In this document: positions 1 to 64,000 of the stretch, in pieces
Position numbering within the stretch: position 1 is the first letter of the stretch
Layout of the letters: each line of letters starts with the position of its first letter
NCBI GenBank assembly: GCA_965178125.1
Contig: OZ237761.1
Coordinates: 310,001-374,000, forward strand
DNA from: Bilabrum cf. latius
Lineage: Eukaryota
Direction: 5' to 3'
Length of the DNA stretch: 64,000 bases
The notes under the pieces: generated by a model
The model's input: only the letters and a program-made list of their open reading frames with translations
Databases searched by the model: none
Told to the model about the DNA's origin: nothing
Position numbers and translations under genes: made by a program

Positions 1-1178
1 TGCGCGGCGTCGTCGATCGCCGCAGAACCAGAGTCGTCATCGACTGCAACGATCGCTACCACGCCCTCGTCGGCTTCTGCGCCAGCGGAACCAACCGGCG
101 CCGCGCTAGCCGATTCCACCATGGCCCAAACAGTTTCCAATCCTCCCACTTGATCAGCGGCATCGCCAGCAACAGCGCACGCAGCAGCAAGTGCCGCCGC
201 ACCAGCAACGGCTGACCCAGTGACGATCGACGGCGAATCTACGGGTTCGTCACCGCTACCATTCTTCAAACCACACGCTACTTCCAACTGGGATCGCACA
301 TCGTTGGACCAAACGGCACCAGCTGCAGCCAGCCACGGCAATAACCGGAACAGCGCCGCCACAGCCGAGACGCTGCCCCGCCGCAGCGCCGCCTTGAGTG
401 CCTCTCGCACGTGGGCGACAGCGACTGCCCTCACGTCCACGGCAAACGAGTCCGCTGCGGATCCGCCGGTGGTGGCACCTTCCGCTCGAACTTGATCTTC
501 ATGCTCGCTCAGCATACGCCCCCAGCCCGCGACTATTGCGGCGATCGCAGGGGAGGCCCAAGGCCTCTCGAGGGCCATGCGGAGCAGCCACCTGCAAGCC
601 GTGTGCGCTCTGCTCTTTGCGATCGCGCGGAATGCGACGGAACTGGAACTATCCGATTCTTCTGATGCGTCTTGCCCGTTTGATACGGCCTGGGCTTTGT
701 CAGCATCTGCATCCGAGGCGACCATCGGGACAGCAGCGCTGGCGCCTGGCGGCTTCCGATGCACAGCCGCCCAAATGTCATCCGACGCCTCCTTCGCGCT
801 GGTGCTTGAAGAAAGCGCGGACATTATTTTGCCTCGGACATGCCTAGCAAACCTAGATGCGTCCCTAGCTCCGCCGCGGCTTAGGTACTCCTGCACGGCT
901 GCCCGCTCTTCCGTCGTAAGGCTAGCACATGCTCCCAAAGCTAAGGCTGCCGAGGGCTCTCTGGCCTAAATGTCTTCCTCTGTTGCTGCAACAAACTGCG
1001 ACTATAGTCTTGATGCAACAGCAGACGCTCCTCCTCCGCTGCGGCCCCCACCGCTGAACCGCCGTCCCCTGCCTCGTCCACGCCCTCTGCCGCGGCCTCG
1101 CCCCCTCCCGCGGTACCCTCCCCCGCGGCGTGGCTTGAACGTACGTCTATGGTCTCCGTCGTGCTGGTGCGCCTGCAT
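1..1178 (-). CDS. 5' part of a protein with an RG/RGG-rich N-terminus and a helical domain (possibly MIF4G/CBP80-like); runs off the window start
   Basis: ATG at 1178 opens [30 protein letters not shown]... The frame stays open to position 1 except for TAG at 1002-1004 and 966-968. The segment ACRWLLRMALERPWASPAIAAIV...VREALKAALRRGSVSAVAALFRLLPWL resembles the CBP80 MIF4G helices (by eye only). Confidence 0.55.
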
Positions 1179-1299
1179 TTGAATTATAATTGCCTGGGCT
1201 TAGCCCTGACCTTTTTCATTGCTTGTATTGCTGGGTGTCGATGAAAGCACACGCTACCATCCACGAACTGCAATCGAATCATTTGCGCCTTCTAGTAGC

Positions 1300-4200
1300 A
1301 TGAGCGAATCTCCTAGTCCTGCGCGTTCGATTGATAGTGATGCATCACGTCCTGATTCAGCCACTGGCTCGGGCACTGCTGGGGCTGGTGCGGACGACGG
1401 GCGTATTCTAGTGTTTTGTAGAGTTCGTCCGACAAGAAGTCCGTCTGGGTGGATGAAGTTTGTGCCACAGCGTGGTAGGGTCAATTTTGATGTACCAGAT
1501 TCCTATCTTGAGAGCCATGGGGACGCAGCAATCGCAGCCGGCGGTTTGCAAGCCCGAGACAAGCACCACGAATTTGCTTTCAACGGGTTGATAGGGATGG
1601 GGGCAAAATAGAACGAAGTATTCGACGCAGTTGCCAAGCCAGCAGTAGATAGGTTAGTGCATGCGTAAATATCTCCGAAACTTTGGATGCAACACGTTTT
1701 TCTTCTCAATTCCAGTCTGTCACGGCCAGTCCATCTGAGTATCTGATCGGTCTGCCTGCCACGCAGCGCACTGTCTGGATATAATTCAACTATATTCGCC
1801 TATGGTCAGACCGGAAGCGGGAAAACGTTCACCATTACCGGAGGCCCGGACAGGTACGAAGACAGGGGCATTATCCCGCGCACGCTATCGTACATTTTCA
1901 AGCGGGCGCGCGCCATGGAAGGCGAGGACGAGGCTGCCCCTCCCACACCTGCCTCCGGGGACGGCGACCCGGACGGAGGTACCGAGGGGGAGGGTACAGA
2001 GGGCGGGGGCAAGCGGTTGCCACGGCTTACGGTGAAGCTGTCGTACTGCCAGGTATACAACGAGAAGGCGTACGACCTCCTGGACGATGACGCCAGCACG
2101 GAGCTCGGCGGCGGGATCGAGTCCCTGCCCAGGGTCTCTCTATTCGAGGATGATGAGGGCAGGGTGCACCTGAAAGGGCTGTCCATGAAGGCGTGAGAGA
2201 GCGGGTATACATGCGATGCGTGCAATATGCTATGCATGCGAGGCGGGTTTGGAATCGGCACGTCGCTGCAGTCCATGGCTGGAGTCAACACGGATGCTCT
2301 TCATTTGGCGTGCATTCTCTGATGCTCAGCTCTCATCACTAAGCTTCATGTGCTCGCAGGGTTCACGACGAGGAAGAGGCGCTCAATTTCCTATTCATGT
2401 GAGAGAGAAGTGGTCTCCCTTGTGGGGTCCCACAGTCACCCTCAACATGTGGCGGTACTCGCAACACACCTGCAAGCAATTACTGTGCCGCCCCCCTCTA
2501 TGTTTGCATCTCGCAGTGGTGACTAGCAGAAGGAAATCAGGGAGACCCCCATGAACCCGGTTTCATCACGCTCACATTGCGTGTTCACTCTGCTTGTGAG
2601 CCAGTTTAGATGCAGCGCCTGCCAACCCGATACCCATCCCTAGCACCTTTGTACATATGTGTGCTTTTTTACGGCCGCGTATTCGCCTTGCTTCACAATT
2701 TTATTCGTGCAGCTGGAGTCTCGACCGACCGGCAGTGCCCTTGTCCGCCGCTCGAAGCTGCACATAGTGGACCTGGCAGGGTCAGAGAGGGTCAGCAAGA
2801 CAGGTGAGGGGAGCGGGGCCCGATCGATCGTTGACCTTGTCTTGGCTTGGCTCGATGCTGCTGTCTGCATTTTGTTCCGGCTGCGTATACTGCACATATG
2901 TCCGCGCCACGTTTTCCATATACATGAGCAGGCGCCAGCGGGCGCACGCTGGTCGAGGCCACGCACATCAACAAGTCGCTGCACTTTCTGTCTGTCTGCA
3001 TCAGGGCGCTGCACGATCGGGCAAAGCTGTAGGAAAAGTTCGGCAGGCAAGGCTTGGACGGACACCGAGCCATGATGCGTGCTGCACAGCAGGTGCATGT
3101 ACCGTACCGAAACAGCGTGCTGACATCGCTGCTGCGTGACTCGCTGGGAGGCAACAGCCTTACAAGGGTCATCGCCACTGTCAGTGCGGAGGCATCCAAT
3201 ACCGGAGAAAGCGTCAGCACCTGCCGTTTTGCGCAGATGATCGCCAGGATCCGCAACGCACCGGCAGTCAACGTCGAGACGGACCCCGCAGTGCTGGTGC
3301 AGCAGCTGAGGCGTCAGCTCTCCAAAATGGAGGCGGAGAAACAGTTTCTCCGAGGCGAGCACGGGGACACCGGCCCCCTCTCAGACGAAGAGAAGGCAGG
3401 AGTGCTGCGAGGGGTGCTAACCTGGGTGGGGGATCCAGCCAGGGTACTGCCTGCTGCCGTGCTGCAGGGTACGGGGGCTGTTGGGGCCACGGGTGAGGGC
3501 GAGGGCAAGGAGGGGGAAGGGGAGGCCGGGGCCGATGCGGGCGAGGAAGAGGAGAGCGGCGCAGATGAACCCGGAGAGGACCCGGCCATGTTTCCGTTCA
3601 GCAAGTACCACGAGCCCGTGGTGTCCAAACTAGCTGCGGGAGAGATTGACCCTGATGCGGCGCAGCAGCAGAGGAGGGACCCCGTGCCGCCCATCGGTGG
3701 GCTGCAGCTCAGCCGTCTTCACTTTGCCTTCCACGTGCTTCGAGCACTCGTGCTGGCGTGGGCCAGACAGCCACGCTTGAGCGGTGGCGGCAGCGGCGAT
3801 GCGCACGGAACTGCCGCAGGGGCAGAGGGGGCATCTGGTGAGGAGCTCGAGGAGGCCCGCAAGATAGAAAGAAAGCTCAGGCGCAAGCTGAGGCATCGTG
3901 AGGAGGAGATCGAGGCGCTTTTGGCATCCTTGCGCAAGCTTAAGGGGCAGGCAGGTAGGCCCACCGGCGCTGGGAGCCTGGGACACTCCTCTGCTCAGGG
4001 CTAGCAGCAGCGAGGTGCCACTCAGCAACAGCCCGCGGAACCAACCGTCCCGCTGCCCCCTGGGCCGCCCGTCACTGCGTCGCAAGCCCCTGCTCTGGCA
4101 TCAGATCGCTCGCGGGCGTACGATTCCTACCAGAAGTGGTGGCCAAAGATGGGCAGGTTGCAGGCGTGCAGGGAGGATCTGCAGACCATGTATGAGCAGG

Positions 4201-4949
4201 CCAAGGCCGTGGGCAAGGACGTCAACGAGGCGAGGTCACACGTGAGGAGGCTGCAAGGAGAGCTGGAGGAAGCACAGAGGAACGAAGCAAGGAGAGTTGC
4301 GGCAGAGGTGGCTGATGAAGAATCGAGGCGCGCGGATGGAGGGGCAGGGTCTGGTGACGGTGAGGGCGTGGTGGGAACGAGCGGTCGCGGTGCCGCCAGC
4401 GAGTCAAAGTTTGACCCGACTCCCATCCACCAAGAGATGGCACTGCATAAGCAGACGTACCAGCAAGGGTTCGACCGTCTCCGTGACATGAAGAGAAGAA
4501 TACAGGCGTAGCAGAGGGAGATTGAGGCCCTGACAGCCTCCATCAAGGCGGCCTTCCAGGCGTGGCACGCGCGGCTCGTGCTGCACGTGGCAAAGCACGG
4601 CGGAGTCGCTACTGGGTTGTCTTCAGGCGGCCCGGCTGCCGGACAGTATGGATCGGGTGCTGGCACTGCTGGTTCTACGGTGGCTGGTTCCGTGCCGGGT
4701 TCTGTGCCAAGGTCCACATCAGCATCAACAGGGCCGGACCGCAGTTCTGTCTACAGCAGAGGAATGGGTATAGCTGCTGCATCTGGCACCGGTTCTTCGC
4801 ACAGCGGTACAAGGGTGCAGTCCACGGGAGATGCTGCCGCGGATGCTGATGTGCGGGCTTTCTATGCGGCATCGGAAGCGCTCAAGAAGCAGAGGCAGCA
4901 AGTGGGAGCTACGGGCCGAGGTGGCAGCAGCCGAGGGAGTGGAAGATAA
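1300..4949 (+). CDS. KIF6: Kinesin-9 family motor protein, KIF6-like
   Basis: Motifs [73 protein letters not shown] and [20 protein letters not shown], with a C-terminal [18 protein letters not shown] introns at 1653-1766, 2193-2359, 2399-2516, 2596-2712 and 2804-2931. In-frame TAG at 1609, 2524, 3030, 4002 and 4509. Ends at TAA 4947-4949. Confidence 0.92.
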
Positions 4950-5484: not shown

Positions 5485-8400
5485 TTATGGCTGAAGGATG
5501 ACGCTCGTTGGAGGTGATTCGTCTGGGCAAATCGCAGCAGTACCGCTCTGTGAAATCGCTGTGACTTGTAGACCCTCTACATGCTTCGGAGCAGCGCAGG
5601 ATGGAGACAAAGTGGACGGCTTGCCCACATTGCCGGAGTCCCCGCTAGCGGTATCCAGATGCCGGCCGAAAGCTCCAAGTCCGCTGCCCGTACGAGTCTT
5701 GCTGAGTACGACGACAACCACACCTCCGACCAGAATCACAGCAGCGCCCACACTGATCACGGCGAGCAACGAGACTGTGCCCAAGTCATCGTTGGAATCG
5801 TCAGCGTTTGTTTCATGCCCTGATTCAACCGGAGCTGACCTGTTGCCCCGTGCTCCGCCTGTCAAAGAAGCGGTGCTGGTGAATGGGTGTACTCCGGTGC
5901 TAGAAAATGGCGTTCCGGCCGAACAGCTTCCATTGGACGCCCAGTGGTATCCTTGAGGACAATCCAAGGAGAACGTTACCAGGCAGACGAGTGGTTGTGC
6001 CGAGCCTTGGATGCGTGTGCCGCCGCTATCAACGCCAACGAGCTGTACATGCGTGCTGTACTCGCCCGGAAATAGATCGTTCCTGTAGACATGTATGACA
6101 ATGCCTTCACCATCGACATATCGTGCTGTGACGTCAGCGACGCTGAGCAATGTGCTCGGCTGCAAAACAACGCTTCGAACCACCACTTCAGCGCCAACAC
6201 CAGCCACAGACGAATCGGCAGCAGCAATGGCACCCGTGATTCCAGTTGATACGCGAGTGATGTAGCCAGGAATTGGGAGCGATGCGTCTGGATCACTCGC
6301 CTGAAAGACAAAGACTCCGTCCGAGGCTGAAGATTCTGCAATGCTTTGGGATGGGTGCTAAAACACTGGGACGCGCGATGCAGCCGATGCGGTGACAGCC
6401 ACGCTGAACCGCACGAAGCCCTGGTATTGATCCGCGCTGCCGTCCTCAATAGCGAAGAGGCCAATACTGTACTGCTGATCCGCTCGGATGGAAGCGGCTG
6501 CCTGGATCCAAACATCCCCGGTGCTCGCATCCACAGCAAAGAAGGATGCATCTGGATAGGCAGGGTCAAGGGAAAACGTGACTGGAGCACCCAGGTGCTG
6601 CTAGCCAGAGACGCGCGCGCGGGCAACAATCGCACCATCATGCGGGTTGTCAATACGTACGACTTGATCCGCGGTAGGCTCATCGAACTGCAGCACGCCT
6701 CGAGTATTGGCTGGACCGCTGCACGTGGCGGTCGATCCGCCGAATCTGTGCGTCCAGTCCACCGCAGCATACCCCTCACGCCCGTTGCCATGAACGTCAG
6801 AGGATCCTATTGGCCCATCTAAACCCATGCCGTAGCCCAGCGCCCCTCTCATGCTATTCCCATGCAGCGTATAGCCGGGACCATCGCAGCCGAAGCACCG
6901 AACGATCTGTGACTCGGGTCCTCCCCGGAGCTACTGCGCGATGGCACACACTGCGCATCCGTTTCCGTGAATGGAGACTACCTGGTACTCTCCGTAGCTT
7001 TCCACGACCTGCACATTCTCTTGAGAATCTTGGTCAACGATACAGGCAGGTATCTCTGGCTGGCTCAGCAGCGGAAACACCAAAAATATGCCCTGGTCCT
7101 CAGCGGCACTGAACTGGTCGCCGGCCGCTCCGTGACGGACGCACTGTACCTAGTGAATGCCATAGCCCGCAGTGGTGCCCGACACGCACACGCCGCCCTC
7201 AATGACCGCCATTGAGAAAACATGCCCCTTGAAATTGGCGATTACCACTGACCTAAGTGCATCATCCCGGACACTGCCCAACTCCTGCTCGACTATTGGC
7301 ATTACGGCAGGGGCTATGGACGCATTGAACGCATGCCACGCATACGGCATCCGTCCAAAGCAGACGGCATCGTGGCGAGTCACAGAGTCAGACGGGGACT
7401 ATCGCCTTTCGTACAGCACGCATATTTTGTCTGTGCTTCCGTCCACCATGACCGGTGTGCCTGTCTCCCTCCATCTGTCCACCGACAGAGCCCGAAACGG
7501 ATAGGCGATCGCCACGCTCGTGTCAAGCAGAAGCCTTCCAAAGCAATGAATTTCGTGCCCGTGAATACCGTCCAAAATCACGCACGCAGTGTGACGAGCA
7601 AGAGCGACAGTGTGACGAGCCGGGAAGGCATCGTGGGCCCAAAAGAGCGGTGCTGACAGAGGCACGCGACGCTCTGCCATGGGCAGGACAACCCCGCCGT
7701 GGCTGTACTCCTTTCCTGTTCGCTCGATGAATGCGTCGGCCTTGAAGAGCGTCATCTTACCCCAGCACTCCAGGTTTGAGAGCCCGAATACCACGTCTTC
7801 GAGCACCGCGCAGAAATGGTTGGCGCCCGCATAGAGGTGCGCAACAGGTCGGTGCAAAGGGACGCTGAAGCCGGAAGCACTCGTCTAAGACCAGCTAATG
7901 TCTCGCGACAGCGGTGAATCTATAGGGGAACGAATGTGGGTACGGTTGAGACTGGGACGCTCGTACGGTGTGTAGTCCCAGTTGCCCCAGCACCTCACGT
8001 TGCCGTGCTCTGTGCGCAAGCACTGCGTCTGCTGGTCGAAGTCATCGCTAGCGAGGCCGATAACCTGAACCACTTTGCCCTCCTCCGGGGTTGGAACGAA
8101 TGGTATCGGCTCTAAGGCAGCTGCGAGGCCGATGCGGCCGTCGGAATCTCGAAGAGAGGCAGCGACTGCAGCTGGGTAGCCTGACGAGTACCCGCACGTC
8201 GCCTCTTCGCAGTGCCCCCAGCACCAAAACTCACCCGACGTGGAGGTCGCGCAGGAGGCCCCACTGGTACCTACGCTGACATCCTGAATGCTACACGGCC
8301 CTCGTACGTCCGTAAACCTCACTGTCAGGTTCACAACGGCTGCGTTCCCTGCCTCGTCCTACCCTCCGACAGCAAGCTTGTGTTCGTGCGCCTCGTGATA

Positions 8401-8753
8401 CCCCTGGGATAATTCGATGCGACCGGAACTGGAATCTATCGTAAAAATTCGATCCACTCTGCGACGGATACGCTAAGTTTAGTATCTTTGGCTAGCGCGT
8501 GAGCGGTACGGGCCTACCGTTCCCCGACGGTCCAAGGCCCAATCTGACTCTCGTCTCACCCGAAAGCTGAGCCAGACAGAATAGCAAACTATGGATGCAG
8601 CGAATGAATTAAATCGATTGTGCCCAAGCTTATCCGCCCCTACGTTGCGATCACCGAGGTTTCAGTGCTTGCAGTTGCGGTCGGGGTAGCATCCGCAGCT
8701 GAATATGCCGACCCAAGCACTGTCAAGGCCGAAAGCCACAAGATCAAAAGCAT
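5485..8753 (-). CDS. Type I membrane protein with cadherin-like domains and RCC1/BLIP-II-like repeats
   Basis: Signal peptide MLLILWLSALTVLGSAYSAA and an intron at 8459-8559. Cadherin-like motifs: FTIDSSSGRIEL, FFAVDASTGDVWI, PVF.HPSQSIAESSASDGVFVFQASDPD. RCC1-like motifs: VSVGTSGASCATSTSGEFWCWG, LYAGANHFCAVLE..LECWG. TM helix LLAVISVGAAVILVGGVVVVVL. ORF-track pieces 7885-8334, 7399-7857, 7150-7383, 6601-6852 and 5485-6207 are one frame separated only by TAG. Ends at TAA. Confidence 0.75.
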
Positions 8754-10212
8754 TTCTGCAGTGCGTTTGAGGTTGAGCAATGCAAAAAATACATTAGTCG
8801 TTGGTAGAAGTTTAAAAGGCGCGCGTTGCTCCACGATACGCCATTGCGCTCCATTGCAGGATGGCCCCGGCATCGCCTGTAGCAACTAGTCACCGAGTGA
8901 GACCAACAAAAAGTTGTATTTTGGAGCATAACGTACCGGTGGTATTAAAGAGATGCTGCTCACTCTTGAACAATTGTGGATGTTGATGTGAAAAGTGACG
9001 CTGCCGGTAGCGACCAGCGAAGAGCACTGCGGTCGCAACCATTATACGGCAACCGTCCCGCGAGCCACCGCTAGCCACCACTGCGCCACAAGCAATCAAG
9101 AAACATCGCAATGATACCTTCTACATTTACCGCCACAGAGCATACGCCCAAGCACTCGCCTGTCTCGCCCGTCAGCGCCACGAGAGTGCCCTACTGTGAC
9201 CCGGACACTGCGCCTCGCTGCTACGCTCCACAAATGATGGCAGCGTGCAGGAAGCAGCTTGCAAAACACCTCACGCGCAGCGTACAGCTCGGTCCGCCAC
9301 ACATCTGCATAGCACCACCGGCAACACAGCTGGCCCAGTAGTGCTGACGGGTGGTGATGGATCATGATATGTCGCAGCAGCGCGTGCCACATAGCACATG
9401 GACAACTCGCTGGCTACTATGCCCTGTGAGCATGAATAAAGTGTTCTTTCCATTGTGATCGCTACGCACGGGTGCACTGTCCTGAATGGCAGGGACAGCG
9501 ACCAGCCCGTGCAGGGGCTAGTCCAGTCCCCGCAGACCGCCCAGAGGTGATCGCGGAACCAGGTGACCCATGCTCCAACCAAGAGCGATGCTACGCTACG
9601 AATACAAGCCATTGGTCAGGCATAGGCTGAAAGCGCCCTTCCTGGCACTTCAAGAGCTGCTACTCGACCTGTCACGAACCGGCACCCGACGAAGGCAACC
9701 CTGCGTCTGCATCCGGAGGCACTTCAGTGACATGCACAGCAGATTCAGCAGGTACTGCGCTCAACTTCCCGGAGATAGACTTGTTGCTGTCCATTGCCTA
9801 ACCGAGATCCACTGCTGTCCGCCCAAGCTACGCAGCGGCCCTCGTTGCAGCAAACATGCTTTCGGAACTCTCATTCAGCAGTTTCTACTGTCGAATAAGC
9901 GATTCTTTTCCACCTCTTAGTATCAAGGCGTCAGTCGCATCCACAGCTTCCCGCAGTGTTAGCAGTGCGCCAGCTGCGAGCGAGTCCAGCCGCAAGCTAT
10001 ACAAACTAACTCAATGAGGCATCCATTCGCGCTCGGAGCAAGGTAATATTGAACATATACGTATACATTCATGTTTACTCACACAGGACGCGGTCGCATG
10101 GCTTTTCGGACGCCATTTTTTGGATCGGACGCCAGCCAAATGTTTTACAGTGCACTGCAAAATCCATAGATTCCGGGAATTAGAATCTCAATGCTCCTCA
10201 CCCCTGGTCAAG

Positions 10213-16178: not shown

Positions 16179-16282
16179 GTGAGGCATATCTAGATTCCGG
16201 ATGCGTGGTTGCCTCGGATCGGATCAGAGGGTGGCTCGCCGTATCCATGGATGTACCCTAGGTGTCCATAGGCCGTCTATGA

Positions 16283-19585: not shown

Positions 19586-19716
19586 GTTGGGGCTAGCATT
19601 TTGCAGCGATATGGCATTGTTCGGCGGCTATAGGTGCAATCGTCATTCGTTGAGACTGTTGACGAGCAGCTGATCAGCAACTTGTCTCACATATAGAGCG
19701 CTTGCTCGGCCAGACC

Positions 19717-20331: not shown

Positions 20332-20661
20332 TTTGCCAATTTGGTCGCACGTGGCTTGAATTTGACTCGGATGCACAGCTAGATCAGATATTTATCATAC
20401 CGACCTTGTGGGAGGCGAGCAAGTGCTTGCTTGGAATTCACGTGGTGCAGTGGCGATAGGCAAGCATGATCGAAACGACATTTGCTTGATATGTTGCTCT
20501 CCCATGAGTGACGAAGACTACTACTTTGACAGTTGTTCGGGTCATTTCGGGTAGGGATGGCTCTCCACCCAGGCCCCAATACGGACCCACATGCCCCCCG
20601 TGCTGCGAGGGCCCAGCTAGCAAGCAGCCCGCATGCTGCACCACACAGCCCTCTCCATCTC

Positions 20662-46579: not shown

Positions 46580-46841
46580 TTCGATTGTTGCGGAGCTCGC
46601 TTGGAGTGAAATATCGACTATGTACGTGTGCTGATAGAAAATGAACATCTAGATGGCATCTGCTTCAAATCTCGAGAACTAGGCCAGTGACACACCCCCC
46701 CGCTACGGTAATAAAATAAATTTATGGGGGACACACATAGGTGCCCATCTGATCCAGTTTCCATTGATTGGCCCTACCTTCGTACCATCGAGACACAGTC
46801 ACGAATGGTGGTGCAGCTTGTGTCCCACATCCCCTGTCTTT

Positions 46842-51123: not shown

Positions 51124-51325
51124 GCGTCTTTTTCATATCTTCAAGCAAAATGATTCCAATCCACAGGTCCTTTTTTGCGGTGTGGTCTCCCAATTTTCGA
51201 TTGCGTGTGTGCCTCACCGCGACGTCCGTGCGTCGATCGGAGCAACTACGCAAATCCAAGATCTATTCGCTGGCGGTGACATGGACACCATTGAATCGGC
51301 ATGTGCGCAGCTGATGACACTTCCA

Positions 51326-52666
<1,341 letters not shown>

Positions 52667-52987
52667 TTTCGGTTAAACGAATTCTGTGAAATGATTGACT
52701 GCGCCGAGAGCGAATGCTGCGAACGGTTTCATTGGCGAGAAAAGACGCATCGGTCAGTATCGGTGCACGGCAAGATTGCTTGATAGACACCCCGTTGCTC
52801 GCGGCCACAGGGTACAGCAGCATAACGTCAATCAATTTCAGGCAAATTTTAAATCATATCTCACCTCTCTTACTGGCAGTGCCTCCTAGCTACAAATAAG
52901 CGACCGCTGGATTTCGTTGCACTCGGAGCGGCTCGTTGCACGGTTTGGCTGCATTGCATCGACTGCATACAATAACGTAAAAAGTTC
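52667..52987. promoter_or_regulatory. Putative bidirectional promoter between leuB and leuA
   Basis: 321-nt lower-GC spacer between two divergent start codons. Inferred from geometry only. Confidence 0.45.
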
Positions 52988-55507
52988 ATGCTCAGACTTG
53001 CATCCAATATACTTCGTAGGCATGCTGTGAGGCGTTGTATCGTTGCTGGTGGCAGGCAAGGCCAGGCAACTTGGCGACCCTTTTCAACTGCCCAGACCAA
53101 CGAAGCGGACCGCTTGATTGTGTTCGATACCACGCTTCGGGACGGTGAATAGTCCCCTGGTGCTACTTTGACATATAATGAAAAGCTGGCACTGGCTAGA
53201 TAGCTGGCGTGAGATCGTGCTGTGCCGTGTTTGGGCCTTTTCGGGAGCCTCGAGACAGATCTTACCGTTTGGTGTCTTGGTCTGAGCTAAGGTCCCGCAT
53301 ACTGCAGTTGGTATTGCATCAAATGACGATTATTCTTCATCCTACTGGTTGCTGCAATTTACGCGTTCAAAAAGCTCTAGGGCTTGCGTTCGAGGTCGTA
53401 GTCCACTGGTTGGCTGCGCTACCGAAGGGCGCCCCCCACCTCGTTTACAGTAGCTGCGGGCGAAGAATTGCAATCGCTTTCCCTCGCATCGAGGTGCCAA
53501 CTCTCTGTTCGTCAATTGCCCTCCTGCAGCGAGATCGTCTCAACTCTCCCCGTTGTGCCGCCCTACGTACGCAGGCTGCTCGGCGTCGATGTGTGCGAAG
53601 CGGGCTTTCCCATCGCAAGCGACGGAGACTTTGACGCAGTGCGCGCAGTAGCAACGGAAGTCGGGCCCCTGGTAGAGGGCCGGTCGGACGGCACTCCCAT
53701 GAGGATCGCAGGACTCGCAAGGGCACTCCCAAAGGACATTGAGCGGTGCCATGCCGCCGTCAGTGCGGCGCCGGTGCACAGAATCCACACGTTCCTGGCT
53801 ACATCCGACGTGCACCTCGAGCACAAGCTGAAGATTTCACGTCCAGAGTGCATCGAGCGGGCGGCGAACGCAGTGCGTCTCGCCAGAGGCCTCGTTGACT
53901 CTACCACCGATGGGGCGAGGGGCAAGCACGGGGATGTCGAGTTCTCTCCAGAGGACGCTGGCCGGTCAGATCCCGAGTTCCTGGTAGATGTGCTGACCGC
54001 TGTCATCGAGGCGGGTGGGACCACCCTCAACATCCCAGACACGGTCGGATTCGTCACACCGGGGGAGTATAAGGAGCTCTTCGCGCTCCTCCGCGCTCGC
54101 CTCCCGACCGAGTCGCCCATCGACGGCCGACCCATCATCCTGTCTACGCACGCGCACAACGACCTCGGCCTCGCCGTCGCAAACACGCTCGCTGGTGTTG
54201 AAGGGGGTGCCCGGCAGGTGGAGGTGACCATGAACGGGATCGGAGAGAGGGCGGGCAACGCTTCGCTCGAGGAGGTGGTCATGTCGATCCGAACCAGGCC
54301 GGAGAGGTTCCCGGTGCAGGCGCCCCAGATTGACACAACCCGGATCACCTCCACCTCGCGCCTCGTGTCTGCAGTGACCGGTATGGGCGTACAGCCCAAC
54401 AAGAGCATCGTGGGCGCAAACGCATTCGCTCACGAGTCGGGCATCCACCAGGACGGAGTGCTGAAGCACGCCGCAACCTACGAGATCCTCACACCCGAGA
54501 GCGTGGGGCTTGGCCGCAACAGCCTCGTGCTGGGCAAGCACAGCGGTCGGGCGGCCTACAGGCAGAGGCTGGAAGCACTCGGCTTCGGTGGACTCTCTGA
54601 CTCGCAGCTGAACGGATTCGTGCAGCGGTTTAAGACGCTCGCAGACACCAAGAAGAGTGTGAGCGACGCTGACATCCTGGCCATCGTGCAAGAAGGCATC
54701 GATTCGATCGTGCCGCTGGTGCAGCTGAGCGGCCTTCACGTGACGTGCGGCTCGGACGTCAAGCCGACCGCCACGGTGACTGTGATCGAAGCAGAAGGGG
54801 CTGTGGAGGAGGGCGAGGGCGACGGCGGAGAGATGCAGCACTCCTCTGCCGCCATTGGAAACGGTCCCATCGATGCTCTCTTCCGGGCGTTCGGCCTGAT
54901 CCCATGCCTGCCCGCGGCGGATCTGACAGACTTCGCGGTCCGGTCCGTCACGGACGGCCGAAAGGCTCTGGGCGAGGTGACAATCCGGCTGCGCCCGGCG
55001 GAGCACGGCGCCGGCGGGCAGCGAGACCTCTCTGGTCTGGAGGCGGTGAAGGCCTCCTTGGCTGACCCGCACACGGCCTCACCCAGGGACGGGGCGGGCG
55101 ACGACCACGATAGCGCGGCGGACGGGCTGCACAGCGACGACAAGAACTTCGAGGAGGCGCGGATGTCTAGCGCCGACGCGCTCGTGAGGTACTAGCAGGC
55201 AGTGGAGCGCAAGGAGCAGGAGAGGAGGAGGAGCATGGCAGGTGGAAGCGCCGATGCCGCCACCATGCTAGGTGAGGATCCCCTGACGTCAGAGGCGTCC
55301 GGTGTCGGTCTGTCCACCGACATCCTTCAGGCTGCGGCCAGGGCGTATCTCTCGGCTGCGAACCGCCTGCTGCACCGAGGAGTCCCGGCGAGGCGAGAGC
55401 TTGCGCGGCAGCAGGGTACCGCGGTTGACGGCGCGAATGGCGGCGTCGTAGCTGGTGCGCCGGTGTCTGCGAGGCGACCGACGCGTGGGGTCGAGGCTGC
55501 CATGTGA
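52988..55507 (+). CDS. leuA: 2-isopropylmalate synthase with a putative mitochondrial targeting peptide
   Basis: MLRLASNILRRHAVRR...PFST leader, then LIVFDTTLRDGE[TAG 53150]SPGATL..EKLALAR[TAG 53201]LA, intron 53209-53574, then LLGVDVCEAGFP, HAHNDLGLAVAN, GIGERAGNA, AFAHESGIHQDG and GNGPIDA. After TAG 55193 comes the regulatory-domain end GVGLSTDILQAAARAYLSAAN. Ends at TGA. Confidence 0.95.
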
Positions 55508-55822
55508 AACGCCGCAGAGCTCCACGTCCAGGTCTTGTCTCCCGTTTGATCCGGAGTTTTAGGCAGGCCTATCTGTGCATTTGGTGCCTAACTAAGTCAT
55601 GACGGGGAAATGAGATTTACACGTGTGCTTGAGCCAGACTTCAATTTTTTTTCCTGTGCAAGTGTTTAAGTATATCTGGCCCACAGCCTCGTTTCTGATG
55701 GCCACATCCATGCGCATGTGCCCGCAGGGCCGGGTGTGGGCAAGGACCCGTGTCTCCCGTGGCGGCCCAGTGGCTCTGGTCCATCCGATCTTTAGATCAA
55801 ATCCATCCAGACTCTAGACAGA

Positions 55823-58800
55823 TCACCTGCGCTTGCCGCGCCGGCCCCGCTTCTTCTTGCCCCCCGTCCCAGACCCGCTGCCAGCCGTGTGCTCATGAGC
55901 TGCAGATGAACCAGAGCCACTGGCCGGCACGCTGGGATCGGCGGACCCGACCGCGCCAGCCCCGGGTGCGCCCGACCTGCCGCCGGCAACCGACACCTTG
56001 ACCGCCCTTGACTCGCCGCCCTCGGCGTGCACCCACAGGCCGAACGCCCAACGGCAGCTGCGAGCTCGCGGAGTCACCATGAGCAGGCCACCTTGGGGTG
56101 CTGCGGCGGAGGACCCCTCAGCGTTCATGAGCCCGAGGCCGGCAAGCCCTTCCTTCAGCACGGCGGGAAGGGCCTGGGCGTCTGCCAGCAACGCGCTTGC
56201 AGCGCGCAGCACCTCGCGTGCCTCTGCACGCACCGTGCGAATGTAGCCCGCGTGCGTGTCTGCGGCAGCTCGGAGCAGGGAGGCGAGCGCGGCGCCGCTG
56301 CCACCCGCCACCCGTTGCCCAGCCCACGCGCGCGCCGCATCCCGACCAGCCTCACCGCACTCGGCGGGCGCGGGCATCATTTCCAGTGCCTGTTTGGCCA
56401 TATCTACGGCCTTTCGCAGCGGATCGGTCCAGGTGGCCAGAGCTGCACGAGCGGCGGCTTCGTCTGCCGTGCCGTCGCGGGGCGCGTCCGGAGGCCCCAC
56501 GCTCTCCGGTATGGCAGACTCTTTCGTGAATCTCATTTCCATCGCAAACTCGCGGTAGCTCTGCGGGATCCCCTCCAGTCGCGACTCCAGGAGCGGCTCC
56601 ATCCTGCGAGCAAAGGCACGGATGGAATTCCACATGGGCTGCTTGGCCTTGGCGGCACCGCCGTGCCAGGCAGGCAGCCGCATCGCCTCCAGCCAGCCCA
56701 GCAAGCGAGACTGGCCCTGATGCAGGTAGGCCCGCGCCCGGTGGTGCGGGATCCTCCAGTCGGCCTTTGTTGCGAGCTCGATGGCATGCTCGAGCTCCTT
56801 GGCGCCAGGCAAGTGCAGCAGGCCAGAAGAGTGGGCAGCAGACGACCCGGCCGCAAGCTCTGCTCCCGACGACGCCTTTGGCCCAGCATCCGCGGCCACC
56901 TTCCGAAGCGACAGCTCGCTGCGCCGGTCGGTCCAGTCATCCTTGGCCGCTGCTGCAAGCGCCTTGACGGTCGTAGTCACCACGTCTGCATGTCTGTGCA
57001 GCACACGATGCAGGGGCCAAGTCATCCAAACGGCTTCCCTAGGCAGGCACAGCTAGCCCTCCAGAGCGCCCTGAAAGTAGGCCGCGATCATGGAGCTCAC
57101 GTGCTCCCAGCTCCAGGAGCCCATCCTGCGGACGTACACGGGCGCCAGGGCCTCGAGCCTCTCCGCGACGTGCTTCTGCAGGGCGGCCTCATCCACCCCG
57201 CCCTCGCCCGCAGGTGCCGACGACGACGTGCCGCCCCCGCCACCGCCCCCTCGCCGGCCCTTGCGGCCTCGCCGTCCCGACTTGCCCTTGGACGAGGACT
57301 GCTTCGCGGCTGAAGCAGCTGCCGCCGCCTCGGCCGCGGCCTCTTTCGCTGCGACTTCGGCTTCGTCCTGGCCCATGATAGCGTGCCGCAGCTGGAGCCT
57401 GTCTACCACCGAGGGCCAGGGCGCAGAGTCCGGCAGCCGGCGATGCGGCGCGCGGCGAGCGGCTGCCAGCGGATCATCGACCTTGTCGACACCCTCTGTT
57501 GCCGCGGCACCGCCGGACGCACCCTCGCTGCGTCCGGCAGCAGCGGCCTGCGACGGCGCCAAGGGCAGCAGCGCGCGGGCGTCCACGGGGCTCCCGCTCG
57601 GAAGGAATCCGACGACGGGGTTTGCCGCACCTTTCGCGATCAGGTCGTCCACGTACTCTCCTTCTGCAGACACGACGCCCATCTGCTGGGCCCGGATGTC
57701 TGCACGCCGCTGCCTCCTCACGTGCCTCGAGCACGCCTCGTACGCCAGCCACGCGGGCGCAGACTCGGACAGCACGGCGGCGTACTGCTGGCCCTCCTGG
57801 GTGGCGAGCAGCTCCTGAGGGACGCCGTGTTCCCTGGCGAGTGCCTCGGCTACCGCTCGCTTCCCAAGCCAGGGAAGGTTCATGAACCGCCCGTCGCGGT
57901 GGGTGGATCCTGGAATCTTGACCATGCCGGGGCGACCCATCAGCTGAAAGACGCGGCAGCGGGCGTACCCGTCGGCACCGCGGGCCACAAGCTGCGCCTC
58001 GATCACACGCACCGCGGCGGCTCGCACCGCTGCAGGCGCCGCCCGTCTGGCCTCCACAGTCGAAGAGGACGCAGCCGCGTCGCCCTCGATCACCGACGCG
58101 GCTTGTCTCGCCGCCTGCAGCGACGCAAGCGCTCTCCTGATGTCCCTCTGCTGCAGCGCCTCGCTGCCCCTCGCGCACAGCCCAAAGTCCACGAACCCGA
58201 GCAGGTGCACGCCCATTCCACCGGCGGGCACACAAGGCGAAGGTTGCTTGTTGCCAGCGCCGTCCTCGCCGCCGGAGGAAGAGCCCGATGCGCCCCTCGT
58301 GGCAGCCTCCGCCAGGAGCGCGAGGCCGGGCGCACGAGCGTGCGACCCCAACCCGCGGTGGTTCGCGTGCCACCGCAGGAAATTGGGTGCGATTCGGCTG
58401 CCGGCACCCAGGCTAGCCCCCTGCTGTTCTAAATCGCCAGCGCCCTCCATCGCCTTGTCGTCCGGGAGCGGCGGCACCGGGGTGCTATCGATGGCGGCCA
58501 GCTGCTCCGCGTCGGCATTGCGCGGCCGCACGGCAAAGTCCACCGTGGCTGGCGCGGGGAGCAGGGCGGGCCAGCTGGCCTCGGAAGGGGGCGCGTGGCT
58601 CGGGCCGTCGGACTCTGCCGCCGAATCATCGTCATCGTCATCATCACCACCAGCGGCGGCGGCGGCACCAGCACCAGCACCAGCGGCGGCGGCAGAGGAC
58701 GAGGAGGAGGAGGAGGAGGAGGAACCTTCGGAACCGCCCGAAGCCAACTGGCCCGCGCTGCTCCGAACCGCACCCACAGCGGACGCAAAGCCGCCCCGTC

Positions 58801-61569
58801 GCAGCGGGTTGATGAGGCGAGAAGCTGCACTCGCGGGCCGCTCGCCGTCACCGCTGACAGCGCTCACAACAGCACCGCCGGACGCGCCGGCACCCAGCGC
58901 CGATGCCGACCCCAGGGCTGCCTTGGAGACGACAGCGGAAGGGGGCGCCAGCAGCACGGCGGGGAGGGCCGCCACCTGCGCCAGCCTGCGGGCGTGCATC
59001 CGGAGCCCCAGGATCGCCTCGAAAGAGGACGGCAGCACCGTCTTGCGGGGGTGCGAGCCCGGGGTCTTCTGCAGCGGGGCCCGAGGGTCGAACCATCGTC
59101 CCAGGTTGCCCCGCTCGGGGCTGGGTCGGAAGACCGCCCGCAGGCCGTCCGTGCGAATCGACGCAGCAGTACCGTCCTCCTCCTCCTCCTTCTCTTCCTC
59201 TTCCTCTTCAGCGCCTAGCACGGCAGAGAGATCGACGGCGTGCGTCCCGACGGAGAGAGGCCCGTCCCCGGCTTCAGGCCCCGCCGCGCCGCCGGACCCG
59301 CCTGCACCGTCGTCGTCATCACTGGCTGGCTCGGGTTCCACGCTCCCCATGGCGCTGGGCGCCTTTTCGTCCCCGGGCGGGAGCGGATCCAGGCCGCTGG
59401 CGAGGGCAGACCGCAGCAAGATCTCGGCCTGCCGCTGGCACTGGGCAGCGGCAGCCGCCGCGAGGGGCGCCGCCGTCTCGGTGTGCAGCAGCGCGCCGGT
59501 CCCAAGGACGCTGTAGCAGCACAGCAGGGAGCGCAGCAGCCTGAGGGCCGGCAGGATCACGCAAGCCACGTCCAGGCTTGCGGCCCCGCCGCCGCTCTCG
59601 GCTGTCGCAGGCTACACGGCAGGCACGGCTCCAGAAACAGAAATAGAAGCGGCAGGGTCCGCTGCGCCTTGCCCGCCGCCACCAGCCGTCGCGCAGCTGT
59701 CCGCGATGCCCGGGAGGGAGGCACCAAGCGCGCCACCCTCTCGGGCAAACGAGCGGATGGCCTCGTCGGAGCGCTCCATCCACGGCTCGGCCAGCCGCGC
59801 CCGCTGCGCGTACCTGCCGGGGTCCCGCACTACGTCCCCGTCCGCACTGGCCCCGGCCGAACCGGCACCGCCGGCGCCCGGGCCTGGTGGCGCGTCGTCC
59901 GATCCCTTGGCTTCGTGCCCGCCAGACTACCCCGCATCACCACCACCACCCCCACCTCCACCGGAGGAGGTGGACCACCCATGGGACGCCGCCCAGCGCC
60001 TGCCGCCGTGCGACTCGAATTCCCTCATCGCCGGCACACCATGCACTCTGGCGAGCGCCCTGGTGGCCGACGCTAGCCGGCCCCCGCCCCCGCCCCCGCC
60101 TTCTGCCACCTGGAAGAGAGAGGGCGCCGCGACGGACCAGGCAGGCGCGCCGCCGCCGGCCGCTCCCGCCGCGGATCCAGAGACCGTCCCAGCCCCGAGC
60201 CGCAGCGAATCAAAGGCGCAGCACAGCACGGACCGCGTGCGGTGCCCCACGAAGCCCTCCGAGCGAGCCCGCTCCACCAAGGCGGAGTCGGCCGCGGCGG
60301 GCAGCTCCTGCGAGCCCGAGGCCTGCGGCGACAACCCACCGGCCTCTGCAAACAGGAGGACGGCCTGCTCCGCGTCGAGCAGGGCGGCGATGGCCGCGTC
60401 CGTGCTTAGGTCGGAGGCCGGGTCCTCCACGTGCGCCTGCAGGCAGAGGTCCTCGTCCTCGTCCACGGAGCTGTAGCGCATCGCGGCGCGGGCCAGGTGG
60501 TGCGCACGCAGGGCACCCTGCACGGCAGCGGCCGCCACCAGGGCGGCGGTGGACCGCGGCAGGGTGGTGGGGGAATCAGAAGGGCTGCTCAGCGGCGTCG
60601 GAGGCGAGAGGACGGCAGCGGTGCACGCCTCGAGCGGCTCCTCCGGGCACGACGCCACGGACCTGGGGTCTGCCTCCCTCGGGAGCTCCTCGTCGCCCAT
60701 GTGCCACACCGGCCCCTAGTGTCCGGCTCGGTTGGCGCACCCGTGGCTCGCACCTCCGGCGCCGGCTGCCGCTGCCGCTGCCTTGTCGCCATCCGTTCCT
60801 GCTCGCGCAGGAGGCGCGGGCCTGTGCCTCTGCACCGAGTCGGAGTCGTGCATGGTCCAGCAGAGGACGGGGGGCAGGCCCGCCAGCCGCCGCAGGGCGT
60901 TGAGACGGTCGGGACGCGAGAGGGTGCAGGAGCACACCGTGTCGCACATGGCGTTTCCGTCCAGCTGCGCGCTGGCCTGCGAGGTGAGGGAAAGGAAGGC
61001 GAGCACGACGCGGACTGGTGGAAGGGCACGCTGGAAGGCGCATCACAAGAAGAAAAACGACCTGAATTCGTGAAGAGGGGGGGGGGGGAAGAGACCTCCC
61101 CGTTGCGCAGACCACTCCCCAGGGGGCATGCTCGCTCTCTCACCAGCGCGCGCACGAGGCCAATGAGCAGCTCGGACACTGACCGAGGCGATCGAAGGGA
61201 GCGGGGGCGAGCGGCCGCAGCGGAGTCTGCGCCGCGTTGCGATGGGAGGGCCGGGCCTGCGCCTGCGCCTGGACTGCACGCCGCGTCCAGCCAGCAGCGA
61301 TCCATCTTTGGATGGAACAGCTCGAAGGCATTGCTGGCCACTTGGTGCCCGTATCCCGGGGCATGAACCATCTGCCCGCTTGGCACGGCCCGAGTACAAT
61401 GCATAAATAATGCAGTCACGTCGCTCCAGTGGCTGCCGTCTCGTTCTTCGTCGCAACGAGCCGCCAGCGCCGCTTGCGGCTCGGCCGCCGGCAGTCGCTC
61501 CGCGGGGTCCGAACGCCTGCCGGACCGAGGCTTTTTCTGGCGCCATGGAGCAATTTCTAGCAGACTCAT
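55823..61569 (-). CDS. NAA35: N-alpha-acetyltransferase 35, NatC auxiliary subunit (Mak10), with large low-complexity insertions
   Basis: WSDVTALF...GQMVHAPGY...NAFELFHPKMD, intron 60977-61143, QLDGNAMCDTVCSC, SSVDEDEDL and YFQGALEG[TAG]LCLPREAVWMTW. TAG at 60716, 59927, 59612 and 57053. Ends at TGA 55823. Confidence 0.75.
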
Positions 61570-61877: not shown

Positions 61878-61949
61878 GGGCTGCTGGTCTAGTGGTATGA
61901 TTCTCCCTTCGGGTGGGAGAGGTCCCGGGTTCGATTCCCGGGTGGCCCC
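61878..61949 (+). tRNA. tRNA-Pro (anticodon CGG)
   Basis: GGGCTGC acceptor stem pairs with GTGGCCC. D-arm TGGTCTAGTGGTATGA, anticodon arm CTCCC-TTCGGGT-GGGAG, T-arm CCGGG-TTCGATT-CCCGG. A downstream T-run fits a Pol III terminator. Confidence 0.95.
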
Positions 61950-62943
61950 AACCGACTTTTTGCCCCCCAGCCCCCCCCCCGATTCAGACTTGGTATTTTT
62001 ATTTTTGTCGTTCTTGGCCCTCTGCCGCCCTCCACGCCATGTGCCTCCGAGGGAGGCCCGAGCCAAGGAGAGGGCGGGGCCGCCGTGCGGCGGGATCGCG
62101 CCGAGGAACGTGGGCGACTGCGGATATCGCTGGACAGTCACAGTCTCGCTTGCATCCTGGCGGTGGCGCCCCGCTCTGGCTGGTGTCTCGGGCCGTGTCT
62201 CGGGCCGGCTGTTCGGCAAACATCCTCGCATCGAATGATCAGGAGAATGAGAGCTCATGCATGGGCTACGAATGCATCAGTTGCAGAAGCGTGAGCCAGG
62301 CTCCCGTCCCGGCGAGTGCGAGGGCATCCGAATTGGCCTCTCTGCCCGCGCTGTGTCACTTCAGATACCTCTGCATCCGGCGTAGGTGAGTGTGCCACAC
62401 CCCACACCGCTGAGGAGGCAACATGAACAAGACACGCTGTACGGCAAAGAACGCCTATGCCTCAAGTCTGCGCCATAACGGTGCGGCCACAGCGCCAGCC
62501 AGAGCGGGGCGCCGCCGTCAGGATGTAGCAAGATTATCCTTCACCTTTTGATGATTTAGCAGTCGCCCACGCTTCGTCGAGTCATGCGCGATTCAGACAT
62601 GGTGCCCCGCCTGGGGACAGACAGATCTGTTCAAATTTATACGCTTGTCTCGCTATCAGTCACACTTGCGATTCTTCCGAGGACGGCATCTAGATGTAGG
62701 GATGAATTCCCTCCCCGGCACTTCCACGCGTTCAACATCGTATGTGCCTCGTCCACCCCAGCAGCCCCGCCTGCTTCGTCCATTGCGCCGTCCTTTCATG
62801 CCTTTTGCGGCCATCTACACCACGCCACACGACTGGTCCACTCTCCAAAGCGCCGCATCCCGCGCGCAGCCTCAGCTACCGAGGCGCAAGCCCCTCGCGC
62901 ACGCTCCGACATCAGAGAAGCGCCGCACGAGCCGAACCCACCA

Positions 62944-64000
62944 TCACCGCTCCCGCTTGCGCTGCCCCGGTGCACCGTTAGCAGACTTGTTGCCACCACG
63001 TTCCAAGAACATGGACAGCTGCCCTGGTGGTGGTGGGCCAAACATTCGCTTGGCCACAGCCGCCGCAGCCGCGGCGGTTGCCACTGCCACACTCCGAGAA
63101 CCGACGTGCCTCTTCTCGGCCGCTACAATCATCTCGTCCGCGTACGTCTCTCCAGTGCGGGGGTTGTTCGACCACGCTAGCCTCTGGAAGTCCAAGGACA
63201 TGTACTGCGGCACGCTGTCCTTGAGCGCATCTGCCGGTCGCCGAAGTGCCTTGAGAAGGAACCCTTTCCAGCCGAAGGTTGTACCGTTGTTCTTGACTCT
63301 GACCTCTCGCTCGATCTCGGCCAGGCAGGTCTGCACCCGAAGCACCGCTTCTGGATTCTCCGGGACGCCCATGTTCCCCCAGGCCTTGCGGCGCTTTGTC
63401 TCTGTCCCGTAGCTGCAGTCCTGCTCTACGAACAAGCCAGAGCTCTGAGCAAGCTCCACGACCCTTTCCGCGAGAGAGACACACTCCCGAAATCCGCGAT
63501 TCCCAGCTAGAAGGTTCTGAAGATCGCAACCGACAGGACGGGCGGGATCCATCTCCTCCGCGAGCATTGCCGGGGCACTGCTGCTAGCAACGGCGGACGA
63601 TGAGGCTGACGACGAGGCTGACGACGAGGCTGATGACGAGGCTGCTCCGACGGCCGACGCACCTCCACTTGCGGCGCTTTCCTCGGAACCTCTCTGATCG
63701 CGAACGCGCCCGGACGCGTCCTCGCACAGCCGCAGCACAGCCCCTGCTGCGGCTCCAGAGGCGTGATCGATGCGATACTGCGCCAACAAGTTCTTGATCC
63801 CGCCTTCTGTGATTGTGCTGCCGTCCCGCGCGCAGCAACGAGACAAGCTTGGTCCTTGGCACGATCATCACGATTGCTCGGGCCATGCTCCGCGCCGTGG
63901 TCTGCTTGGATGCAGCTTGGTGGTCGCGCAAGCTCACCATCGCGAGCGCTTTGCCAGCTTCGCTGCCCATCGCTCGCACGAGCTTCGCAAGCATGTCTTG
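62944..64000 (-). CDS. 3' part of a hypothetical protein; apparent frame change near 63830
   Basis: Protein-like frame 63994 to ~63830 (MLAKLVRAMG...KLVSLLRAG), then the 62944-63846 frame (DGSTITEGGIKNLLAQYR...) ending at TGA. No family recognised. Confidence 0.4.

Follow-up and report, generated by a model that had tools for sequence, protein, structure and literature searches.

A 64-kb stretch of GC-rich eukaryotic DNA in which UAG very probably encodes glutamine and UGA and UAA serve as stops

Introduction

A nuclear code in which UAG alone among the stop codons has been reassigned to glutamine has been reported for the fornicate Iotanema spirale and for the ciliates Protocruzia tuzeti, Hartmannula sinica, and Trochilia petrani (PMC11687900, PMC5304391). 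In I. spirale, as described by Panek et al. 2017, UAG encodes glutamine, and UAA and UGA function as stops (PMC5304391). The same sources also describe a few cases in which UAG encodes leucine, serine, or glutamate (PMC5304391, PMC11687900). Here we analyze a 64,000-nucleotide stretch of DNA from Bilabrum cf. latius (contig OZ237761.1, positions 310,001 to 374,000), which is referred to as the window and numbered from 1 to 64,000. From the sequence of the window, it is very probable that cytoplasmic ribosomes of the source organism read UAG as glutamine and stop at UGA and UAA. In other words, the code appears to be of the NCBI table 15 type. This table 15-like reassignment was the original prediction for the window, and it is supported by columns of aligned homologues, summed log-odds, the codons of a relative, purifying selection, and spliced contigs. 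That UAG would encode glutamine throughout the genome is an extrapolation from 64 kb and from one 4.1-kb contig of the relative.

Two other kinds of code are close to this one. Codes in which both UAG and UAA (UAR) encode glutamine (NCBI table 6) are found in many ciliates, hexamitin diplomonads, Streblomastix, some Ulvophyceae, and Amoeboaphelidium protococcarum. Amber-recoded phages, including crAss-like and Lak phages, use code 15, in which TAG encodes glutamine, and switch the code during infection.

TAG as a sense codon

The window has a GC (guanine plus cytosine) content of about 60% overall (54-71% in 4-kb windows) and zero N. It is nuclear DNA of an intron-poor, GC-rich eukaryote, and its nuclear and eukaryotic origin is evident because it carries GT..AG introns and a flagellar-type kinesin. 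The family name of this kinesin suggests that the source eukaryote probably builds a flagellum. When the standard code is applied, the longest open frames measure 5727, 3594, and 2622 nt; reading through TAG gives 10,635, 7569, 5217, and 4545 nt instead. Translation with TAG as glutamine gives recognizable eukaryotic genes that encode LeuB, LeuA, a cyclic-nucleotide phosphodiesterase (PDE), a GxGYxYP-family protein, a protein with a HAD-like domain, a KIF9-like kinesin, and an EGF repeat protein (Pfam). Several long frames had no Pfam family in the scans of window frames. The earlier naming of LeuA, LeuB, and the KIF9-like kinesin was borne out by Pfam and PDB matches. The naming of an NAA35 gene was not confirmed, since no scanned frame matched an NAA35/Mak10 family at E<=0.01.

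We counted 92 in-frame TAGs across 17 stop-to-stop frame or exon segments with a total of 17,368 codons, which is close to the roughly 90 TAGs in about 14 genes counted by hand earlier. TAG thus makes up 13% of the glutamine codons in these segments (92 TAG, 477 CAG, and 130 CAA). Four of the 92 TAGs are located at most 25 codons from the start of a stop-to-stop frame and may precede the start codon, i.e., lie in leaders. The original prediction had also stated that no TAA or TGA occurs in frame. The statement is true of these segments, but it follows from the way the frames were defined, with TAA and TGA as their boundaries, and a separate test of the stop labels was therefore made. In this test, all stop positions in the six frames were kept fixed and the three labels were permuted 1000 times. 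With TAG read through, the longest frame was 3545 codons (shuffled mean 1945, maximum 2858), and frames of at least 1000 codons held 14,954 codons (shuffled mean 5283, maximum 9844). None of the 1000 shuffles reached either value. Reading through TAA (331 sites) or TGA (1685 sites) gave values within the shuffle null. TAG alone acts as a sense codon because only TAG read-through beats the label shuffles, and to this extent the label shuffling agrees with the earlier statement.

TAG also keeps the company of glutamine codons. It adjoins CAG or CAA in 20 of 92 cases, compared with 12.4% for CAG and CAA themselves and 6.5% for non-glutamine codons (Fisher p 1.6e-6). As had been noted earlier, TAG is found within runs of glutamine codons: positions 40431-40448 read CAT CAG TAG TAG AAG CAG, and positions 3999-4010 read GGC TAG CAG CAG.

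Glutamine at conserved positions

The amino acid encoded by TAG is best seen in LeuA (2-isopropylmalate synthase), which is encoded on the forward strand by two exons, 53051-53208 and 53575-55507, separated by a 366-nt GT..AG intron (53209-53574). The gene ends in TGA and matches the Pfam families HMGL-like, HCS_D2, and LeuA_dimer. Exon 1 contains TAGs at 53150-53152 and 53201-53203, and exon 2 contains one at 55193-55195. Both motifs in exon 1 read as they had been described originally. The first TAG lies in GGT GAA TAG TCC CCT (DGE-x-SP), and the second in GCT AGA TAG CTG GCG (AR-x-LA). The column of the first TAG has Q in 117 of the 120 best homologues (the others being two gaps and one P), and that of the second has Q in 96 of 120. 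At these conserved columns, then, the residues opposite UAG are mostly glutamine and show no random-residue pattern. When exon 1, with TAG given as X, was matched to PDB chains of isopropylmalate synthase, Q was present at the first X in four of the four chains shown. At the second X, Q was present in two of the three chains reaching the site and A in the third. Downstream of the TAG at 55193, a conserved C-terminal stretch of LeuA (...DILQAAARAYLSAANRLL) aligns to the C-terminal ...DIIVASAKAYINALNRML of the homologue P0134.

Another informative site is found in the kinesin. The KIF9-like motor exon (1210-1668, forward strand) belongs to a gene split over several exons, and the adjoining exons match Pfam Kinesin and KIF9. 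Its TAG at 1609-1611 lies, as previously claimed, in GCA AAA TAG AAC GAA GTA (AK-x-NEV), and in a PDB match it aligns to the Q of KIFC1 in ...gsgQdEVFeeia. The GxGYxYP-family protein is encoded by the frame at 10018-11892 on the forward strand, which has three TAGs and ends in TGA (Pfam). In an alignment of 150 representatives of this family, the column of the TAG at codon 370 has Q 38, E 35, and M 31 among 137 residues. When log-odds were summed over eight TAG sites, five of which are in variable columns, Q scored +7.0, M -3.7, and A -9.2.

A relative that shares the code

LeuB (3-isopropylmalate dehydrogenase) is encoded by a single exon on the reverse strand (51326-52672) that ends in TGA and matches Iso_dh with an E-value of 2.5e-108. 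Its three TAGs are at 52007-52009 (codon 222), 51884-51886 (codon 263), and 51842-51844 (codon 277), and a PDB match of 3.9e-91 spans all three. A protein search with LeuB found two truncated database proteins of relatives, whose ends fall at these codons. One of them, P0013, shows 90% identity and breaks off directly before window codon 263. The other, P0014 (75% identity), carries Q at 263, and its last residue directly precedes window codon 277. Apparently, standard-code annotation fragments the proteins of this lineage in public collections.

A metagenome contig of 4145 nt (L001) encodes a LeuB like P0014. The contig is 72-85% identical to the window, and the LeuB proteins share ~78% amino-acid identity. 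The LeuB frame of L001 continues through a TAG at codon 277 and through one TAG of its own to a TGA. At the three LeuB TAG sites of the window, L001 has AGA (52007-52009), CAG (51884-51886), and TAG (51842-51844). At the three LeuA sites, it has CAA (53150), CAG (53201), and CAG (55193). Thus four of the six aligned window TAGs face CAA or CAG, and one of the six faces TAG. Judging from these codons, UAG as glutamine is common to at least one related organism, that of L001. This tally of TAGs against a close relative draws on LeuA and LeuB only because no relative was found for the 1515-aa protein with 16 TAGs, which is lineage-specific. In a search of shorter proteins for that one, 0 of 8000 scored candidates passed as a relative. 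LeuB and LeuA lie head to head in the window (divergent, ~380 nt apart), and L001 has the same arrangement and the same position of the LeuA intron.

The comparison with L001 also gives a measure of selection. The ratio of nonsynonymous to synonymous substitution rates (dN/dS) in LeuB is 0.082 before the first TAG and 0.092 after it, and in LeuA exon 2, downstream of two TAGs, it is 0.057. These values are rough because dS is saturated at about 2, but the proportion of nonsynonymous differences (pN) is far below that of synonymous differences (pS). From these ratios, protein-level constraint is evidently the same on both sides of a TAG.

The position of the lineage was approached through the same two proteins. 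The best named matches of LeuA are in Phytophthora (oomycetes) and Anaerolineae (Chloroflexi), with about 57-60% identity. Those of LeuB are in Sphaeroforma (an ichthyosporean), oomycetes, and Vitrella (an alveolate), none of the named ones exceeding 53% identity. For a LeuB tree, 40 rows were picked from 120 hits (13 labelled named rows, 24 unnamed ones, and both relatives). A starred clade with a branch length of 1.17 unites the window with these relatives, and among the 40 selected rows the window clade had no supported named sister (74/48).

TAG in spliced contigs

The stretch is covered by seven sequencing runs from three studies, and four of these runs (X1, X5, X6, and X7) were aligned over positions 36001-56000. 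X1 gave a DNA contig of 31 kb that is colinear with the window and retains both introns in this region. X5, X6, and X7 gave gene-sized pieces: LeuB, for example, is represented by a piece of 1672 nt, LeuA by one of 2377 nt, and the gene with 16 TAGs by one of 4939 nt. The LeuA intron is skipped by X5, X6, and X7 contigs, which join 53208 to 53575. A second GT..AG intron (41970-42062), located upstream of the 16-TAG frame, is skipped by X5 and X6 contigs, which join 41969 to 42063. The 4939-nt X5 contig covers 41564-41969 and 42063-46595 with 0 differences, and another X5 contig is colinear with the PDE gene over 36001-41295. Contig depth differs from gene to gene, over a range of 7.8 to 108. 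The listed X5 pieces leave two stretches unbridged: 46596-46740, between convergent genes, and 52691-52915, the divergent LeuB/LeuA promoter region. We infer that the X5, X6, and X7 contigs derive from spliced transcripts, i.e., complementary DNA (cDNA), because introns are skipped, the contigs are gene-sized, and the gaps in X5 fall at two intergenic stretches. Long-range joints were also seen in these alignments (37571>47342, 42567>47334, and similar ones). Their sides are 20-24 nt long and lie on GAT/GCT trinucleotide runs, and they were discarded as low-complexity matches.

Within 36001-56000 there are 43 frame TAGs, of which 39 are covered by the listed X5 pieces, eight by X6 pieces, and nine by X7 pieces. 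No differing letter, insertion, or deletion relative to the window was reported for X1, X5, X6, or X7. The original prediction had pointed to RNA editing, small introns, and base-calling errors as processes that might account for the TAGs. The RNA-like contigs (X5-X7) show no CAG at the covered TAG sites. The TAGs lie outside the two introns seen and are kept in the spliced contigs, and none of the four runs has a differing letter. If the contigs are cDNA, UAG-to-CAG editing, splicing-out, and base-calling error are excluded for the covered sites because the spliced contigs keep the TAGs. TAG is frequent inside expressed, conserved, and selectively constrained coding frames, and it survives into what appears to be spliced mRNA.

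The same observations bear on the standard code. Under it, the TAGs would be nonsense mutations of pseudogenes, sequencing or assembly errors, or codons removed by editing or splicing. However, the frames are broken by TAG only, and never by TAA, TGA, or frameshifts. The four runs, which come from three studies, show no differing letters, and TAGs persist in the spliced contigs outside both introns. The dN/dS values downstream of TAGs are 0.06-0.09, and one TAG is kept in a relative whose LeuB has diverged to the extent described above. In addition, a gene may carry up to 16 TAGs, and leaky read-through of so many codons would presumably not give a full-length protein. Nothing was found in favor of the standard code, and we consider it exceedingly improbable.

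Termination at UGA and UAA

The ends of the long frames indicate which codons still act as stops: 10 of the 13 end in TGA and 3 in TAA. No frame needs a TAG stop, because all 13 end in one of these two codons. LeuB ends in TGA both in the window and in L001, where its homologues end. Frame ends thus support a reading in which UGA, as the main stop, and UAA would still terminate translation.

One alternative is an ambiguous code of the kind found in Condylostoma, karyorelicts, and Blastocrithidia, in which UAG would be glutamine inside genes and a terminator near the 3' ends of mRNAs. It fits with the presence of several TAGs shortly before a terminal TGA (3 codons in the frame at 42032-46579 and 8 codons in the PDE gene), and the true translation ends are not visible from the DNA of the window. 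However, besides the TGA and TAA ends of all 13 long frames and the position of the LeuB end, the distribution of TAG speaks against it. TAG positions are uniform along the frames (Kolmogorov-Smirnov p 0.41; successive fifths hold 19, 12, 19, 12, and 25 of 87), with no depletion toward the 3' end. An ambiguous code is accordingly judged quite improbable.

A second alternative concerns UAA. In a code of the table 6 type, UAG and UAA would both encode glutamine, and UAA would merely be rare in a GC-rich genome. UAR as glutamine is the commonest nuclear variant according to the account in PMC11687900. Furthermore, CAA is already rare in the window (130 versus 477 CAG). In a conditional test of TAA read-through, one of three statistics was marginal (23 of 1000 shuffles), but the other two were null. 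This marginal value is attributed to short extensions at frame ends and to antisense frames. If TAA were a sense codon in the same proportion as TAG is to CAG, ~25 internal TAAs would be expected; in the small sample that 64 kb provides, substantial coding blocks of one gene are nowhere joined by a TAA. When only TGA is taken as a stop, the three TAA-ended genes gain just 33-97 codons. The other TAA read-through fusions are of antisense frames at 57-61 kb, where GC content is very high, or overlap a kinesin exon. The transcript-like contigs provide a further argument. The X5 contig of the gene at 46842-49250 ends at 46741, which is ~100 nt past the TAA and short of the next TGA (~46668). It would hold no stop if TAA were sense, because it ends before that TGA. 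A code with both codons as glutamine has, in our view, a slim chance of being correct, and we retain the reading in which UAG alone is glutamine.

Evidence against the reading

Several observations weigh against UAG as glutamine with UGA and UAA as stops. The first concerns the residues at variable columns. The column of LeuB codon 222 has R 41, M 33, and Q 21; codon 263 has M 105 and Q 2; and codon 277 has S 93 and Q 0. In the GxGYxYP family, codon 91 has E 32 and Q 5, and codon 321 has K 23 and Q 13. These five sites, three in LeuB and two of three in the GxGYxYP protein, were set aside as identifiers of the residue, being variable columns that are not diagnostic alone. Since five of the eight scored sites are variable, the assignment of glutamine depends mainly on three conserved sites and on the codons of the relative. 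In the relative itself, the window TAG at LeuB 52007-52009 faces AGA (Arg). The extra TAG of L001 faces GCG (Ala), in an alanine-rich low-complexity stretch where the alignment is loose. Ordinary CAG and CAA glutamines in LeuB and the GxGYxYP protein likewise fall in a mixture of conserved and variable columns.

These columns are what an alternative assignment has in its favor. As with UAG reassignments elsewhere, the codon might stand for a residue other than glutamine, such as Glu, Leu, Met, or Lys, and at LeuB 263 (M), LeuB 277 (S), GxGYxYP 91 (E), and GxGYxYP 321 (K) the commonest residue is indeed not Q. However, nearly all homologues have Q in the near-invariant DGEQSPG column. In the summed log-odds, Q also leads the next residue by over 10 natural-log units, L001 has CAA or CAG at four of the six window TAG sites, and TAG is embedded in CAG runs. 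Another residue is thus very improbable, and glutamine remains the preferred assignment.

The remaining points concern the nature of the contigs, the ratios, and the decoding apparatus. The run label of X5 is 'RNA? (probably DNA)', those of X6 and X7 are 'RNA?', and the cDNA status of their contigs is deduced from their structure. In the run listing, no RNA run is on record as covering the stretch. The roughness of the dN/dS values and the marginal TAA statistic belong here as well. Finally, neither a tRNA-Gln with anticodon CUA nor eRF1 is encoded in the 64-kb window, where the sole tRNA is a tRNA-Pro(CGG).

Predicted mechanism of decoding

How would UAG be read as glutamine? One model is that UAG is decoded by a tRNA-Gln with anticodon CUA, which would be one mutation away from the CAG-reading tRNA-Gln(CUG). 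An eRF1 with weakened recognition of UAG would be expected to accompany the reassignment. The model would also explain why UAA stayed a stop, because the CUA anticodon cannot pair with UAA. In the account given in PMC5304391, no anticodon other than CUA reads UAG without also reading UAA, and efficient reassignment is usually accompanied by changes in the N domain of eRF1. For Iotanema, that source describes a T32G change in the GTS motif of this domain, at a position that contacts the third base of the codon. Decoding in the organism must be efficient, as genes carry up to 16 TAGs and with leaky suppression hardly any full-length protein would be made.

Other genes of the window

At the left edge of the window, a reverse-strand frame of 399 codons (3-1199) runs off the window and has two TAGs. 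The last exon and tail of the kinesin gene (2928-4949, forward strand), with Pfam Kinesin and KIF9 domains, contains three TAGs and ends in TAA. It is followed on the reverse strand by a membrane protein frame of 997 codons (5485-8478), which has eight TAGs, a TAA end, and no Pfam family. A forward frame of 1285 codons at 12321-16178, the putative EMC1 gene of the original prediction, has one TAG. The 1119-codon reverse-strand frame at 16283-19642, which has a HAD-like domain (Pfam), contains 13 TAGs and ends in TGA. Within it, a (GA)n-type microsatellite at ~18165-18335 (reverse strand) translates to ~55 alternating Ala-Gly residues.

The longest frame (20662-31299, reverse strand, 3545 codons) encodes a repeat-rich EGF/transmembrane protein, has 11 TAGs, and ends in TGA. 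The protein consists of near-identical ~410-residue repeats. It also features linkers that are acidic and D/H-rich, a pair of EGF-like domains, a single predicted transmembrane stretch, and a tail of short length. The strand antisense to this frame carries long spurious open frames. The sequences around two terminal TGAs, at 16176-16190 and 20655-20664, resemble GT splice donors (GG/TGAGTGAGG and GGGTG/TGAGAG, respectively), and the true 3' ends of the genes at 12321-16178 and 20662-31299 may lie in further exons.

The PDE frame (33894-41465, forward strand, 2523 codons) contains 10 TAGs, including a TAG TAG pair at 40437-40442, ends in TGA, and matches PDEase_I at 4.9e-61. In a protein-cluster search, its PDE domain found generic PDE clusters only, mostly chordate. 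The lineage-specific protein discussed above is encoded by the adjacent forward frame of 1515 codons (42032-46579), which contains 16 TAGs and ends in TGA.

On the reverse strand, a frame of 802 codons (46842-49250) has 11 TAGs and a TAA end at 46842-46844, and a frame of 688 codons (49066-51132) has three TAGs and a TGA end. The two frames overlap by 185 nt (49066-49250) in different phases, and an X5 contig (48521-50109) is colinear across the junction. The overlap represents either two closely spaced genes whose transcripts overlap or a single gene in which a change of frame went unrecognized. Beyond LeuB and LeuA, a reverse-strand frame of 1739 codons (55823-61042) has four TAGs and ends in TGA. 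Across the window, the tRNA-Pro(CGG) gene at 61878-61949 (forward strand) is the sole match to a tRNA or to Rfam.

Significance and comparison with known systems

Nuclear code changes are rare, and the uncoupling of UAG from UAA is rarer still. The literature search found no report of UAG alone as glutamine in a non-ciliate GC-rich eukaryote, but subscription journals and supplements were outside the search and three studies have produced data from the organism, so a report may exist. The window probably represents a new lineage for a code of the table 15 type. A further possibility, which we put forward tentatively, is that UAG alone was reassigned to glutamine in an independent and unreported event in a deep-branching, GC-rich, UGA-terminating lineage, shared by a minimum of two relatives at the species level and probably by three. 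The relatives meant are the window organism, that of L001, and probably that of P0013. If true, this would be the first such case in which GC pressure favors TAG instead of depleting it, and the reassignment could not have passed through a stage of AT pressure in which UAG had nearly vanished. An organism that is GC-rich, terminates most genes with UGA, and has UAG as 13% of its glutamine codons thus tests the need for prior codon loss under AT pressure. The changes in tRNA and eRF1 and the age of the switch are directly testable, because the material exists: genomic DNA, what appear to be RNA data, and one or more relatives sharing the trait. The code also has practical consequences. Standard-code gene callers truncate the proteins, and annotation, BUSCO scores, and metagenome binning will be wrong for this group unless table 15 is used. 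The case is thus of interest for the study of how genetic codes evolve and for the annotation of protist genomes.

Compared with the systems described so far, the code of the window shares most with that of Iotanema. In both, UAG is read as glutamine and UAA is kept as a stop, in a non-ciliate protist. The mechanism predicted for both is also the same, i.e., a tRNA-Gln(CUA) together with an altered eRF1, as proposed for Iotanema in PMC5304391. However, the primary stop of Iotanema is UAA, and its code was inferred from the transcriptome alone, according to the same source (PMC5304391). The window, in contrast, is genomic DNA of ~60% GC with TGA closing 10 of the 13 long frames, and nothing connects the two organisms.

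The UAG-only ciliates are similar in codon usage. UAG makes up 18.5% and 31.8% of the glutamine codons of the two phyllopharyngeans among them, as given in PMC11687900, compared with 13% in the window, and UAA is a stop in all of them. They differ in the choice of stops, since in the figures of that source 78-92% of the genes of UAG-only ciliates end in UAA and UGA is rare (PMC11687900), whereas UGA dominates in the window. Codes of the table 6 type likewise reassign a stop codon to glutamine and keep UGA as a stop, but TAA acts as a stop in the window. Amoeboaphelidium, which has such a code, also differs in base composition: its genomes have ~40% GC, and its proteins are named in NCBI, as reported in PMC10608142, whereas the window has ~60% GC and no named hit above 59% identity. 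Amoeboaphelidium was rejected as the source for this reason. Amber-recoded phages resemble the window in reading TAG as glutamine, but the window is spliced eukaryotic nuclear DNA with GT..AG introns.

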